A stretch of DNA of 64,000 bases from Escherichia coli (lineage in GTDB: Bacteria > Pseudomonadota > Gammaproteobacteria > Enterobacterales > Enterobacteriaceae), in assembly GCF_003334255.1 (NCBI RefSeq), contig NZ_QOWU01000001.1; one strand, given 5' to 3'. This document shows, in pieces, positions 16,287 to 64,000 of the stretch (the stretch's first letter is position 1; the number at the start of each line of letters is the position of its first letter). Under the pieces are notes generated by a model. That model saw only the letters and a program-made list of their open reading frames with translations, made no database searches and was not told where the DNA came from. Position numbers and translations under genes: made by a program.

Positions 16287-16496
<210 letters not shown>

Positions 16497-16500
<4 letters not shown>

Positions 16501-21473: not shown

Positions 21474-22625
21474 TTAATCAGCTTGCTTACGCAGGAATGC
21501 TGGGATATCCAGATAATCCGGCTCTTTCGCAGTTTGCGGCGCATTGTCATTCACGACTTTAGCAACCGGCTTCTGCTCCTGGGTCAGCGGAGCCATCCCA
21601 TGCTGCTGGTAGCGATCCATCACTGGCTGCTGAACCTGCTTATTGGTCACCAGAGTGATTTCAGGACGTTTGTCCATGCCGATACCTGTCGCAACAACGG
21701 TTACGCGCAGCTCGTCATTCATATCCGGGTCAAGAGAAGTACCGATAACCACAGTCGCGTTGTCGGAAGCAAATGCACGGATGGTGTTACCTACCGTTTC
21801 GAACTCATCCAGACGCAGGTCGAAGCCCGCCGTGATGTTAACCAGCACGCCGCGCGCGCCAGACAGGTCGATATCTTCCAGCAGCGGAGAAGAGATAGCC
21901 ATTTCAGCAGCTTCTTCCGCACGGTCTTCACCGCTCGCCACGCCAGAACCCATCATTGCGTAGCCCATCTCAGACATTACGGTGCGTACGTCTGCAAAGT
22001 CCACGTTCATCAAACCCGGACGAGTAATCAGTTCAGCGATACCTTGCACAGCGCCTTTCAGTACATCGTTCGCTGCGCCAAACGCATCCAGCAGGGAGAT
22101 ACCGCGGCCCAGAACTTTCAGCAGTTTGTCGTTCGGGATAGTGATCAGAGAGTCCACATGCTTGGACAGTTCAGTGATCCCCTGCTCCGCGAATGCCATA
22201 CGCTTCTTGCCTTCAAAGTTGAAAGGCTTAGTGACGACAGCAACGGTCAGGATACCCAAATCTTTTGCCACTTCAGCGACGACTGGTGCTGCACCTGTAC
22301 CGGTACCACCACCCATACCCGCAGCAATAAAGACCATGTCTGCACCTTCCAGCGCCGCACGCAATGCATCGCGATCCTCATCAGCCGCATTGCGGCCAAC
22401 TTCTGGATTAGCGCCAGCGCCCAGTCCTTTGGTGATACCGCTACCGATTTGAATCGTCTGTCCAACCGCTGTTTTACGCAGCGCTTGTGCATCGGTATTT
22501 ACCGCGAAGAATTCAACACCTTCAATGCGCTCGCGCACCATGTGTTCAACAGCATTACCGCCGCCGCCGCCGACGCCGATGACTTTAATCACCGCGTCAT
22601 TGGTAAGTTCCATTGGTTCAAACAT
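21474..22625 (-). CDS. ftsZ: cell division GTPase FtsZ (383 aa)
   Basis: ORF track; [30 protein letters not shown]; tubulin signature GGGTGTG. Confidence 0.98.
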
Positions 22626-22685
22626 AGTTTCTCTCCGATTTGTGCCTGTCGCCTGAGGCCGTAATCATCGTCGGCCTCATAAAAA

Positions 22686-23948
22686 TTAAAACTCTTTTCG
22701 CAGCCAACTATTGAGTCGCTTGATCCACGAGCCAACTGATGCTGTAACACGTTTTTCTACTTCAGCTTCACCGTTAAGATGTGACTCTTTCCCATAGTGA
22801 AGCAATCCCACCGCCGTCGAATAATACGGCTCCTGAGCATAATCCGTTAAACCGGTAATGTTCAGCGGCGCGCCGATACGCACTTGCGTATGAAACACGC
22901 GCTGAGCACAGGCTGCAAGACCTTCGATCTGCGCTGCGCCACCGGTTAATACAATGCCTGCCGCCAGGTGATGTTTAACCCCTTGTTGGCGAAGCTTTTC
23001 CTGCAACTGCAATATCTCTTCGTTGACCAGGTTGAGCAGCTCGGTATAGCGCGGCTCGATCACCTCTGCCAGTGTCTGACGTTGCAGACTCCGTGGCGGA
23101 CGACCACCTACGCTCGGCACTTCCACGCTCTCATCTTTTCCAACGATGGAACCCAGCGCACAACCGTGGCGAACTTTAATCGCTTCGGCGTCGCTTGGCG
23201 GCGTGCCAAAGGCGTAAGCGATATCACTGGTCACGACATTGCCAGCATAAGGAATTACCTTAGTGTGGCGCAATGCCCCACCGGTATAAACGGCGATATC
23301 CATTGTACCACCACCGATATCGACGACGCAGACACCCAGTTCACGTTCATCTTCCGTCAATACCGAATAACTTGATGCCAGTCCGGCAAATATCAGTTGG
23401 TCAACTTTCAGCCCACAACGTTCAACCGCTTTGACGATGTTTTTCGCCATATCGTTGTGACATGTGATCAGGTGCACTTTTGCCTGCATCCGCACGCCCG
23501 AAAGTCCTACCGGATTCTTGATCCCTTCCTGATAGTCAATCGCATACTCTTGCGGGATCACATGCAGCACACGATGCTCATCGCGCACACGCACCGATTT
23601 CGCGGTATGGACGACGTTTTCCACATCTTCTTGCGTCACTTCTTCTTCAGAAATAGGCACCATACCAATTTCATTCTGGCAGCTGATGTGCTTACCAGAA
23701 AGCGCCAGATATACCGAAGAGATCTGACAATCTGCCATCAATTCTGCCTGGTCAATGGCGCGTTGTACGCACTTGACCACGGATTCGAGGTCGTTCACCC
23801 CGCCTTTATCCATACCACGCGACGGGCAGCTGCCCACGCCAATGATATTGACCATACCGTCGGGCAGAACTTCCCCTACTAAAGCGGCAACCTTCGCGGT
23901 ACCAATCTCCAGTCCTACTACCAGTTTTCTGTCCGTCGCCTTGATCAT
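22686..23948 (-). CDS. ftsA: cell division protein FtsA (420 aa)
   Basis: ORF track; [31 protein letters not shown]; actin-like ATPase. Confidence 0.97.
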
Positions 23949-44158: not shown

Positions 44159-44190
44159 TTGACATCCGTTTTTGTATCCAGTAACTCTAA
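44159..44190 (+). promoter_or_regulatory. leu operon promoter
   Basis: TTGACA at 44159..44164, 17-bp spacer, TAACTC at 44182..44187, ~35 bp upstream of leuL. Confidence 0.55.
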
Positions 44191-44221
44191 AAGCATATCG
44201 CATTCATCTGGAGCTGATTTA

Positions 44222-44308
44222 ATGACTCACATCGTTCGCTTTATCGGTCTACTACTACTAAACGCATCTTCTTTGCGCGGTAGACGAGTGAGCGGCATCC
44301 AGCATTAA
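44222..44308 (+). CDS. leuL: leu operon leader peptide (28 aa)
   Basis: ATG at 44222; [28 protein letters not shown]; four consecutive CUA Leu codons at 44249..44260. Confidence 0.92.
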
Positions 44309-44332
44309 GCCAGCACGCAGTCAAACAAAAAA

Positions 44333-44357
44333 CCCGCGCCATTGCGCGGGTTTTTTT
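44333..44357 (+). terminator. leu attenuator (rho-independent terminator)
   Basis: CCCGCGCC attg CGCGGG followed by TTTTTTT, 25 bp downstream of the leuL stop and 44 bp upstream of leuA. Confidence 0.9.
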
Positions 44358-52286: not shown

Positions 52287-52321
52287 TTGCTGGTTGATAA
52301 CAAAATCACTACACTAACGCC

Positions 52322-52414
52322 GTTCTCAACGGGGTGCCACGCGTACGCGTGCGCTGAGAAAATACCCGTCGAACCTGATCCGGATAACGCCGGCGAAGGG
52401 ATTTGAGGCTCCTT
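52322..52414 (+). promoter_or_regulatory. TPP (THI-box) riboswitch in the thiBPQ leader (SroA region)
   Basis: GGGGTGCCACGCGTACGCGTGCGCTGAGAAAATACCCGTCGAACCTGATCCGGATAACGCCGGCGAAGGGA carries the conserved THI-element CUGAGA and ACCUGAUCYGGAUAAUGCCAGCGAAGGGA-like core, 40-130 bp upstream of thiB. Confidence 0.85.
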
Positions 52415-52449
52415 CTCAAGTCCTTTGCCACTCTTTTTTGAGGTGCAAA

Positions 52450-53433
52450 GTGTTAAAAAAATGTCTGCCCCTGCTGTTGCTGTGCACAGCGCCCGTTTTC
52501 GCTAAACCCGTTCTGACTGTTTATACCTACGATTCCTTCGCCGCCGACTGGGGGCCTGGTCCGGTGGTTAAAAAAGCCTTTGAAGCCGACTGTAATTGCG
52601 AACTGAAACTGGTGGCGCTGGAAGATGGCGTTTCGCTTCTCAACCGTCTACGGATGGAAGGCAAAAACAGTAAAGCCGATGTGGTGCTGGGGCTGGATAA
52701 CAACCTGTTAGACGCCGCCAGTAAAACCGGACTGTTTGCCAAAAGCGGTGTGGCAGCGGATGCCGTTAACGTTCCCGGCGGCTGGAATAATGACACTTTC
52801 GTACCGTTTGATTATGGCTACTTCGCCTTCGTTTATGACAAGAACAAACTGAAAAACCCGCCACAAAGCCTGAAAGAACTGGTTGAGAGCGATCAAAACT
52901 GGCGGGTGATTTATCAGGATCCGCGCACCAGTACACCGGGGCTGGGTCTGTTGCTATGGATGCAAAAAGTCTATGGCGATGACGCCCCACAAGCCTGGCA
53001 GAAACTGGCGAAGAAAACGGTCACGGTCACCAAAGGCTGGAGCGAAGCCTACGGCCTGTTTTTAAAAGGTGAAAGCGATCTGGTACTGAGTTACACCACC
53101 TCTCCGGCTTATCACATTCTCGAAGAGAAGAAAGATAACTACGCCGCCGCGAACTTCAGCGAAGGTCACTATCTGCAAGTGGAAGTCGCCGCCCGCACCG
53201 CTGCCAGCAAGCAGCCGGAGCTGGCGCAAAAATTCCTCCAGTTTATGGTTTCTCCGGCTTTCCAGAATGCGATCCCAACCGGCAACTGGATGTATCCGGT
53301 GGCAAACGTCACGCTGCCTGCCGGTTTTGAAAAATTGACCAAACCCGCAACCACGTTGGAGTTCACGCCAGCCGAAGTGGCGGCACAACGTCAGGCATGG
53401 ATTAGCGAATGGCAACGCGCCGTCAGCCGTTAA
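52450..53433 (+). CDS. thiB: thiamine ABC transporter periplasmic binding protein (327 aa), GTG start
   Basis: ORF 52438..53433 (TTG) trimmed to the GTG at 52450 (M/V LKKCLPLLLLCTAPVFA signal peptide). Confidence 0.9.
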   Translation: MLKKCLPLLLLCTAPVFAKPVLTVYTYDSFAADWGPGPVVKKAFEADCNCELKLVALEDGVSLLNRLRMEGKNSKADVVLGLDNNLLDAASKTGLFAKSGVAADAVNVPGGWNNDTFVPFDYGYFAFVYDKNKLKNPPQSLKELVESDQNWRVIYQDPRTSTPGLGLLLWMQKVYGDDAPQAWQKLAKKTVTVTKGWSEAYGLFLKGESDLVLSYTTSPAYHILEEKKDNYAAANFSEGHYLQVEVAARTAASKQPELAQKFLQFMVSPAFQNAIPTGNWMYPVANVTLPAGFEKLTKPATTLEFTPAEVAAQRQAWISEWQRAVSR

Positions 53434-61100: not shown

Positions 61101-61282
61101 CCGCATCCGGTATGTAACGCCTGATGCGACGCTGACGCGTCTTATCTGGCCTACACGCTGCGATTTTGTAGGCCGGATAAGCAAAGCGCATCCGGCATTC
61201 AACGCCTGATGCGACGCTGGCGCGTCTTATCAGGCCTACACGCTGCGATTTTGTAGGCCGGATAAGCAAAGCGCATCCGGCA
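61101..61282. repeat. tandem REP/BIME array in the araA-araD spacer: two complete 85-bp units plus a 12-bp partial
   Basis: Unit 1 61101..61185 and unit 2 61186..61270 are near-identical (GCGCATCCGG..AACGCCTGATGCGACGCTG.CGCGTCTTATC.GGCCTACACGCTGCGATTTTGTAGGCCGGATAAGCAAA); 61271..61282 restarts the unit. Confidence 0.9.
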
Positions 61283-61295
61283 CGAAGGAGTCAAC

Positions 61296-61991
61296 ATGTT
61301 AGAAGATCTCAAACGCCAGGTATTAGAAGCCAACCTGGCGCTGCCAAAACACAACCTGGTCACGCTCACATGGGGCAACGTCAGCGCCGTTGATCGCGAG
61401 CGCGGCGTCTTTGTGATCAAACCTTCCGGCGTCGATTACAGCGTCATGACCGCTGACGATATGGTCGTGGTTAGCATCGAAACCGGTGAAGTGGTTGAAG
61501 GTACGAAAAAGCCCTCCTCCGACACGCCAACTCACCGGCTGCTCTATCAGGCATTCCCCTCCATTGGCGGCATTGTGCATACGCACTCGCGCCACGCCAC
61601 CATCTGGGCGCAGGCGGGTCAGTCGATTCCAGCAACCGGCACCACCCACGCCGACTATTTCTACGGCACCATTCCCTGCACCCGCAAAATGACCGACGCA
61701 GAAATCAACGGCGAATATGAGTGGGAAACCGGTAACGTCATCGTAGAAACCTTTGAAAAACAGGGTATCGATGCAGCGCAAATGCCCGGCGTTCTGGTCC
61801 ATTCCCACGGCCCGTTTGCATGGGGCAAAAATGCCGAAGATGCGGTGCATAACGCCATCGTGCTGGAAGAGGTCGCTTATATGGGGATATTCTGCCGTCA
61901 GTTAGCGCCGCAGTTACCGGATATGCAGCAAACGCTGCTGGATAAACACTATCTGCGTAAGCATGGCGCGAAGGCATATTACGGGCAGTAA
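61296..61991 (+). CDS. araD: L-ribulose-5-phosphate 4-epimerase (231 aa)
   Basis: ORF track; [49 protein letters not shown]. Confidence 0.96.
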
Positions 61992-61994
61992 TGA

Positions 61995-62010
61995 CTGTAT
62001 AAAACCACAG
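61995..62010 (+). promoter_or_regulatory. LexA (SOS) box CTGTATAAAACCACAG upstream of polB
   Basis: Perfect CTGT-N8-ACAG, 4 bp after the araD stop and ~55 bp before the polB GTG start; polB (dinA) is a known SOS gene. Confidence 0.8.
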
Positions 62011-62024
62011 CCAATCAAACGAAA

Positions 62025-62051
62025 CCAGGCTATACTCAAGCCTGGTTTTTT
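62025..62051 (+). terminator. araBAD rho-independent terminator
   Basis: CCAGGCT atactca AGCCTGG followed by TTTTTT. Confidence 0.85.
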
Positions 62052-62065
62052 GATGGATTTTCAGC

Positions 62066-64000
62066 GTGGCGCAGGCAGGTTTTATCTTAACCCGACACTG
62101 GCGGGACACCCCGCAAGGGACAGAAGTCTCCTTCTGGCTGGCGACGGACAACGGGCCGTTGCAGGTTACGCTTGCACCGCAAGAGTCCGTGGCGTTTATT
62201 CCCGCCGATCAGGTTCCCCGCGCTCAGCATATTTTGCAGGGTGAACAAGGCTTTCGCCTGACACCGCTGGCGTTAAAGGATTTTCACCGCCAGCCGGTGT
62301 ATGGCCTTTACTGTCGCGCCCATCGCCAATTGATGAATTACGAAAAGCGCCTGCGTGAAGGTGGCGTTACCGTCTACGAGGCCGATGTGCGTCCGCCAGA
62401 ACGCTATCTGATGGAGCGGTTTATCACCTCACCGGTGTGGGTCGAGGGTGATATGCACAATGGCACTATCGTTAATGCCCGTCTGAAACCGCATCCCGAC
62501 TATCGTCCGCCGCTCAAGTGGGTTTCTATAGATATTGAAACCACCCGCCACGGTGAGCTGTACTGCATCGGCCTGGAAGGCTGCGGGCAGCGCATCGTTT
62601 ATATGCTGGGGCCGGAGAATGGCGACGCCTCCTCGCTTGATTTCGAACTGGAATACGTCGCCAGCCGCCCGCAGTTGCTGGAAAAACTCAACGCCTGGTT
62701 TGCCAACTACGATCCTGATGTGATCATCGGTTGGAACGTGGTGCAGTTCGATCTGCGAATGCTGCAAAAACATGCCGAGCGTTACCGTCTTCCGCTGCGT
62801 CTTGGGCGCGATAATAGCGAGCTGGAGTGGCGCGAGCACGGCTTTAAAAACGGCGTCTTTTTTGCCCAGGCTAAAGGTCGGCTAATTATCGACGGTATCG
62901 AGGCGCTGAAATCCGCGTTCTGGAATTTCTCTTCATTCTCGCTGGAAACTGTCGCTCAGGAGCTATTAGGCGAAGGAAAATCTATCGATAACCCGTGGGA
63001 TCGAATGGACGAAATTGACCGCCGTTTCGCCGAAGATAAACCTGCGCTGGCAACTTATAACCTGAAAGATTGCGAGCTGGTGACGCAGATCTTCCACAAA
63101 ACTGAAATCATGCCATTTTTACTCGAACGGGCAACGGTGAACGGCCTGCCGGTGGACCGACACGGCGGTTCGGTGGCGGCATTTGGTCATCTCTATTTTC
63201 CGCGAATGCATCGCGCTGGTTATGTCGCGCCTAATCTCGGCGAAGTGCCGCCGCACGCCAGCCCTGGCGGCTACGTGATGGATTCACGGCCAGGGCTTTA
63301 TGATTCAGTGCTGGTGCTGGACTATAAAAGCCTGTACCCGTCGATCATCCGCACCTTTCTGATTGATCCCGTCGGGCTGGTTGAAGGCATGGCGCAGCCT
63401 GATCCAGAGCACAGTACCGAAGGTTTTCTCGATGCCTGGTTCTCACGGGAGAAACATTGCCTGCCGGAGATTGTGACTAACATCTGGCACGGGCGCGATG
63501 AAGCCAAACGTCAGGGTAATAAACCACTTTCGCAGGCGCTGAAGATCATTATGAATGCCTTTTATGGCGTGCTTGGCACCACCGCCTGCCGCTTTTTCGA
63601 TCCGCGCCTGGCATCGTCGATCACCATGCGTGGTCATCAGATCATGCGGCAAACCAAAGCATTGATTGAAGCGCAGGGCTACGACGTTATCTACGGAGAT
63701 ACCGACTCGACTTTTGTCTGGCTAAAAGGTGCACATTCGGAAGAAGAGGCGGCGAAAATCGGTCGTGCACTGGTGCAGCACGTTAACGCCTGGTGGGCGG
63801 AAACGCTGCAAAAACAACGGCTGACCAGCGCATTAGAACTGGAGTATGAAACTCATTTCTGCCGTTTTCTTATGCCAACCATTCGCGGAGCTGATACCGG
63901 CAGTAAAAAGCGCTACGCCGGGCTGATTCAGGAGGGCGACAAGCAGCGGATGGTGTTTAAAGGGCTGGAAACCGTGCGCACCGACTGGACGCCGCTGGCC
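62066..64000 (+). CDS. polB: DNA polymerase II, 5' ~645 codons; gene runs off the window end; GTG start
   Basis: Frame opens after the TGA at 62051..62053; the GTG at 62066 gives [41 protein letters not shown] and stays open to 64000; B-family polymerase motifs (YGDTDS) follow; not in the ORF track because no stop lies inside the window. Confidence 0.9.

Follow-up and report, generated by a model that had tools for sequence, protein, structure and literature searches.

The 74-nt spacer that separates araD from polB in Escherichia coli is very probably a compact control region with two purposes, in which the terminator of the araBAD operon contains the nested, LexA-repressed promoter of polB. 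The locus is the classical, already described polB (dinA) SOS operator, and the current understanding of it is unchanged by the results given here. What is added is the placement of the -10 hexamer in the terminator loop, the 18-nt spacing between operator and hexamer over 80 species, the way in which the hairpin tracks adjacency to araD, and the standing of the E. coli box as the weakest among its orthologues. The spacer is a clear example of two unrelated transcription units sharing 74 bp.

Organization of the araD-polB locus

The window (the whole stretch of 64,000 nt that was analysed) contains araD and the first part of polB. A 1701-nt query across the araD-polB region matches strain MG1655 at 100% and is found in 5401 of 5426 complete E. 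coli genomes. In this 100% identical MG1655 record, RefSeq gives the order araB-araA-araD-polB-rapA with all genes on one strand, and the positions of araD and polB are exactly those in the window (Table 1). The araD reading frame ends in tandem in-frame stops, TAA (61989-61991) followed by TGA (61992-61994). The gap between the TAA and the core of the LexA box is 3 nt, and 14 nt lie between the T6 run of the terminator and the GTG codon of polB. An earlier note on this DNA had put these distances at 4 and 15 bp; its placement of the box and its choice of the GTG start both stand, with the distances corrected. Three places that match the araD-polB junction are on plasmid-classed records.

Table 1. 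Features of the araD-polB junction and their coordinates in the window
Feature	Position	Strand	Description	Basis
araD	61296..61991	+	L-ribulose-5-phosphate 4-epimerase	ORF list, RefSeq annotation
LexA operator (SOS box) of polB	61993..62012		20-mer GACTGTATAAAACCACAGCC	sequence, published listing, conservation
Putative weak -35 of polB	62008..62013	+	CAGCCA, 3/6 match to TTGACA, 17-nt spacer	sequence reading
Intrinsic terminator of araBAD	62021..62051	+	11-pair stem, 62021-62031 with 62039-62049, core CCAGGC/GCCTGG	folding, adjacency
-10 hexamer of polB	62031..62036	+	TATACT, 5/6 match to TATAAT, preceded by -13C and -14G; in terminator loop	fixed spacing, conservation
Probable polB transcription start	62040..62045	+	in 3' arm of hairpin	+7/+8 from -10 (~62043-62044), tiling array
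Shine-Dalgarno-like sequence (weak)	62055..62057	+	GGA, 8 nt 5' of GTG	sequence reading
polB	62066..64000	+	DNA polymerase II; GTG start 62066-62068, extends past window end	RefSeq annotation

The LexA box

The perfect CTGT-N8-ACAG that the earlier note had described after araD and 5' of the terminator hairpin was read directly at 61995-62010 as CTGTATAAAACCACAG, with ATAAAACC as its N8 spacer. The site has the palindromic CTG-N10-CAG core of the consensus TACTG(TA)5CAGTA and matches the consensus at 13 of 20 positions by our own count. It adjoins a promoter: 18 nt separate the end of the 20-mer from the conserved -10 hexamer, and the putative -35 hexamer CAGCCA overlaps the right half-site of the box.

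The motif match alone is without significance. CTGT-N8-ACAG is present twice in the window where 0.62 copies are expected, and 13 of 100 shuffled sequences contained at least two. A symmetric position weight matrix (PWM) was trained on 17 other published SOS boxes, with that of polB excluded; it scored the polB box at about 6.5 bits, compared with 17 to 29 bits for the 17 training sites, and the site ranked 11th in the window and is not set apart by the scan. This low score agrees with the published heterology index of about 13, which places the polB box among the weakest accepted LexA boxes (PMC11228462). The box is taken to be genuine because of its placement, its conservation over 80 species and its published dependence on LexA.

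The other CTGT-N8-ACAG of the window (CTGTTGCTGTGCACAG, 52474-52489) is found just 3' of a TPP riboswitch (52320-52419). As a LexA box this copy was rejected: it has a GC-rich spacer, is inside thiB by coordinate conversion to MG1655, falls outside the 15 best PWM scores and probably arose by chance. The highest-scoring 20-mer in the window (ATCCGTTTTTGTATCCAGTA, 44164-44183, 12.8 bits) is located just 5' of the leu leader (44208-44357). Its left half-site reads CCG instead of CTG, and it is probably not a LexA site.

The probable araBAD terminator

The hairpin begins 30 nt 3' of the araD stop codon. It follows the core of the box after 11 variable bases and consists of the arms AAACCAGGC (62022-62030) and GCCTGGTTT (62040-62048) with a T6 run at 62046-62051. 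Folded alone, it has a predicted free energy of -17.8 kcal/mol (z = -5.4), and none of 200 shuffled sequences was as stable. The hairpin is clearly non-random, unlike the bare LexA motif. A terminator scan of the window did not list it on the plus strand and gave the minus-strand reading only; by our reading, the scan extends the stem into A/T pairs, so that the tail no longer has as many T residues as the scan requires. In the Term-seq supplement of PMC7815308 araD is not listed, and the araBAD operon is presumed to have been uninduced under those conditions.

The polB promoter and its probable transcription start

The hexamer TATACT is the only good -10 sequence in the spacer. With the GTG codon just 14 nt past the T-run, the polB promoter must overlap the terminator. 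The claim of the earlier note that an SOS-regulated polB promoter overlaps the 3' end of araBAD is thus upheld by this 14-nt gap, by the position of the -10 hexamer in the hairpin loop and by an 18-nt spacing from the box in 78 of 80 species; that the -10 is inside the terminator loop and that the box overlaps the -35 region had escaped it. Promoter prediction, which had been proposed as a check, did not support the claim, as a consensus scan that demands at least 4/6 matches per hexamer called no sigma-70 promoter at the polB spacer. The promoter was missed because its -35 matches at only 3/6 positions, and weakness of the -35 is compatible with a promoter. The sequence GCTATACT, with its -13C, resembles a sigma-S type -10 region. 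A second candidate -10, TATAAA (61998-62003, inside the box), was rejected, as it is without the final T, has no -35 and is not conserved in loci of the insertion type.

The published start that had been named as a second check lies downstream of the LexA box: on tiling arrays, the polB transcript made after UV treatment begins at about 62040, 46 nt past A61994 (Table 7 of PMC3009722). RNA beginning at 62040 or at 62043 has no significant structure by folding (z = 0.1 and 1.4, respectively). For recA, the tiling-array 5' end in Table 7 differs by no more than about 3 nt from the start expected from the recA promoter sequence. No start or 3' end in the spacer is given in the supplements of ROSE (in vitro run-off transcription RNA-seq), SMRT-Cappable-seq, Conway 2014 and the eLife 3'-end study, or in the first part of the Cappable-seq file.

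Conservation among the Enterobacteriaceae

The locus was compared in 80 Enterobacteriaceae, one polB locus per species, with PolB N-terminal identities of 81-97%. Most loci have araD no more than 1.5 kb upstream of polB; the two are adjacent in 55 (spacers of 74-352 nt) and separated by another gene in 18 of the 80. A CTG-N10-CAG box precedes the -10 hexamer in 80/80, with CTG and CAG invariant, and the gap from the 20-mer to the hexamer is 18 nt in 78 and 19 nt in the remaining 2. The hexamer is TATAAT in 65 loci and TATACT in 15, and it is accompanied by -13C in 71 and by -14G in 79. CTGTA, CAG and the -10 are conserved over the 80 loci, while no constraint is seen in the 12 nt that follow the box. 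Box and hexamer persist without adjacent araD or hairpin in Salmonella (L010 and L013), Citrobacter sedlakii (L017) and Cedecea (L079), as well as in L073, and because they do so they are regarded as the promoter-operator unit of polB.

The box of E. coli K-12 scores lowest among the 80 orthologous boxes (about 6.6 bits, against a median of 13.8 and a maximum of 24.1). Box strength does not differ between loci with and without adjacent araD (Mann-Whitney p = 0.5). In 26 of the 55 araD-adjacent loci the CTG of the box starts 0-3 nt after the araD stop, and the 20-bp operator overlaps the stop codon.

A hairpin was counted as present when it encloses the -10, has at least 6 pairs and folds at -9 kcal/mol or better. 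By this measure 53 of 55 loci with araD adjacent possess it, compared with 5 of 18 in which a gene intervenes (Fisher p = 9e-9, without phylogenetic correction). This association fits the role of an araBAD terminator. The link to adjacency is not clean, as several loci with a co-directional inserted gene, for a 210-aa ElyC/DUF218-like protein, are without it (L036, L039 and L055), and a weakened form is retained in some where the inserted ORF is divergent. In the hairpin alignment 94% of cells are paired with 1 compensatory change; because the arms are nearly invariant, covariation lends the stem no support.

The 5' arm, AACCAGG(C/T), is kept (-14G and -15G in 79/80) where the 3' arm and the T-run are lost. 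Loci that retain the 5' arm alone, about 10 nt before the -10, are L010, L013, L017, L030, L036, L039, L040 and L046. A conserved 5' arm is unusual for a promoter spacer and may reflect either a function in the promoter or slow decay.

The inserted genes differ by genus (L005-L019, L016/L021/L036, L030). Salmonella and the Citrobacter youngae group carry a minus-strand ORF of 130-160 aa with no NCBIfam match, other loci carry a plus-strand gene for a 210-aa protein that is distantly ElyC/DUF218-like, and Pseudocitrobacter has a plus-strand ORF of 170 aa that is hydrophobic in its N-terminal half and has no NCBIfam match.

Variation within E. coli

Of 5347 E. coli genomes that match a 36-mer spanning the stop codon and the box, 5010 have it unchanged; for a 38-mer spanning the hairpin and the -10, the figure is only 2853 of 5401. 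Part of the variation in the 38-mer is due to a TATACT/TATAAT polymorphism in the -10. TATACT is found in K-12 and in E. whittamii, and TATAAT in strains O145, AR_0055, AR_0013 and DETEC-P666 and in E. albertii (L082-L085, L002-L004).

In E. coli SCU-301 (L086, 300-479), araD is not beside polB, and a minus-strand hypothetical gene is found upstream. The LexA box of this strain, TACTGTACAAAATATCAGTA, is of the CTGTAC...CAGTA type, as in the insertion-bearing loci of Salmonella and Citrobacter. These features suggest that the upstream region has been replaced in SCU-301.

Relation to the described polB operator

The polB (dinA) SOS operator is said to have been described by Bonner et al. in 1990 and by Iwasaki et al. 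in 1990, and Lewis et al. in 1994 and Fernandez de Henestrosa et al. in 2000 reportedly scored its SOS box. The present site is the same, with identical sequence (ACTGTATAAAACCACAGC) and the same position upstream of polB; the published operator has a heterology index of about 12-13 and a few-fold LexA-dependent induction. The assignment of the box to polB in the earlier note is supported by the literature, in which the site appears as the SOS box of a UV-induced polB (PMC3009722, Tables 4 and 7) and in which, by RNA-seq, azidothymidine (AZT) induces polB 4.7-fold with a 3.1-fold dependence on LexA cleavage (PMC11228462). Additionally, polB is listed among the genes with a known SOS box, and 30-50 molecules of Pol II are present per uninduced cell (PMC6590174). 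The site sets the basal and the induced level of Pol II, an SOS polymerase involved in replication restart and translesion synthesis.

In uvrA, the LexA box covers the -35 region of the promoter. The polB operator is like such -35-overlapping SOS operators in being centred about 40 nt 5' of the transcription start, where LexA would compete with RNA polymerase. What sets polB apart is that the araBAD terminator also holds its -10 and probable start, and that the operator lies directly against the araD stop codon. The arrangement also resembles other overlapping terminator/promoter regions, in which one stretch of DNA ends one unit and begins the next, and the downstream mRNA, by starting inside the hairpin, avoids termination.

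Proposed mechanism

According to the proposed mechanism, the hairpin and T-run (62021-62051) would end araBAD transcripts, and the TATACT hexamer, which forms the hairpin loop, would serve a polB promoter nested in the DNA of the terminator. Transcription of polB would start at about 62040-62045 in the 3' arm; such an mRNA would be without the 5' arm and therefore could not form the terminator, which would let it escape termination. A LexA dimer bound at 61993-62012 (approximately -50 to -31) would block RNA polymerase at the -35 and upstream region, and repression by occlusion is favored because the box overlaps the weak -35. Upon DNA damage, RecA* would trigger self-cleavage of LexA, the promoter would be freed and Pol II would increase a few-fold. 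Repression is expected to be leaky and induction early and modest because the box poorly matches the consensus. From the layout described above we infer the identity of the -35, the exact start, the mode of occlusion and the efficiency of termination.

That araBAD read-through and SOS control meet within the spacer, as the earlier note proposed, may reasonably be inferred. A search of the literature for read-through from araBAD into polB returned only mentions in strain construction. Stringer et al. in 2014 (J Bacteriol 196:660) reportedly include polB among arabinose/AraC-regulated genes; if so, read-through of the araBAD terminator has already been observed. A stronger proposal is that the arrangement is a coupling device and not mere compaction. 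Heavy transcription from PBAD would then run into LexA, which either acts as a roadblock to araBAD or is evicted while the -10 is melted, and with read-through this would raise Pol II on arabinose without DNA damage. We consider such coupling rather unlikely; if it were true, the weak box of E. coli might be tuned to keep the roadblock on araD small. In the laboratory, common araBAD deletions or PBAD fusions end right beside the operator and terminator, and expression of polB could change as a result.

Alternative explanations

The nesting of the promoter in the terminator could be questioned if polB were mainly transcribed from upstream, by read-through from PBAD or from TATAAA (61998-62003), with the hairpin acting as a leader attenuator and LexA as a roadblock. 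PBAD is strong, intrinsic terminators are never fully efficient, TATAAA matches the -10 consensus at 5/6 positions, and the arabinose/AraC regulation of polB that Stringer et al. reportedly describe would imply some read-through. However, TATAAA lacks the key final T, the best -35 at 17 nt upstream, within araD, matches at 1/6 positions, and loci of the insertion type have TACAAA at the corresponding position. The tiling-array 5' end at about 62040 lies past the 5' arm, no arabinose is needed for polB to be induced in the SOS response, and an upstream origin leaves unexplained why TATAAT is kept at a fixed distance even in genomes that have no adjacent araD or no hairpin. An upstream origin is thus quite unlikely as the main source of polB mRNA. 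It is barely conceivable that the CTGT-N8-ACAG is a chance match in an A+T-rich spacer at which LexA is inactive. The motif frequency in shuffled sequence and the PWM score and rank given above agree with chance, but all 80 species have CTG and CAG at this place, with free variation in the next 12 nt, orthologous boxes score up to 24 bits with a median of 13.8, 5010 E. coli genomes share the 36-mer unchanged, and the site is a published polB SOS box with lexA-dependent induction (PMC3009722, PMC11228462).

The inverted repeat AACCAGGC-N-GCCTGGTT has also to be considered as a DNA site for a dimeric regulator, or as a sigma-S/spacer element, in place of a terminator. In keeping with this, lineages without the 3' arm still have AACCAGG of the 5' arm (-14G and -15G in 79/80), and GCTATACT resembles the sigma-S type of -10. 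Positive regulation of polB by RpoS has also been reported (Dapa 2017, cited in PMC6590174). A GC-rich stem with a T-run 30 nt past a stop codon is, however, a canonical intrinsic terminator, and a protein site in the promoter should persist everywhere, whereas the 3' arm and T-run are found in 53 of 55 araD-adjacent loci and in 5 of 18 otherwise. We therefore hold the DNA-site explanation to be very improbable and retain that of an araBAD terminator enclosing the -10 of a LexA-repressed polB promoter.

Other elements in the window

Matches to the Rfam family naRNA4, a REP-type repeat, are found at 61171-61236 in the araA-araD spacer, with two more at 16304-16497. A full-length match of 105 bits to the Rfam family PssrA ("plasmid-encoded Shigella sRNA A") is present at 22617-22706 on the minus strand, in chromosomal DNA. 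By coordinate conversion this match is at the ftsA/ftsZ junction, and the name of the family is unsuited to a chromosomal location.
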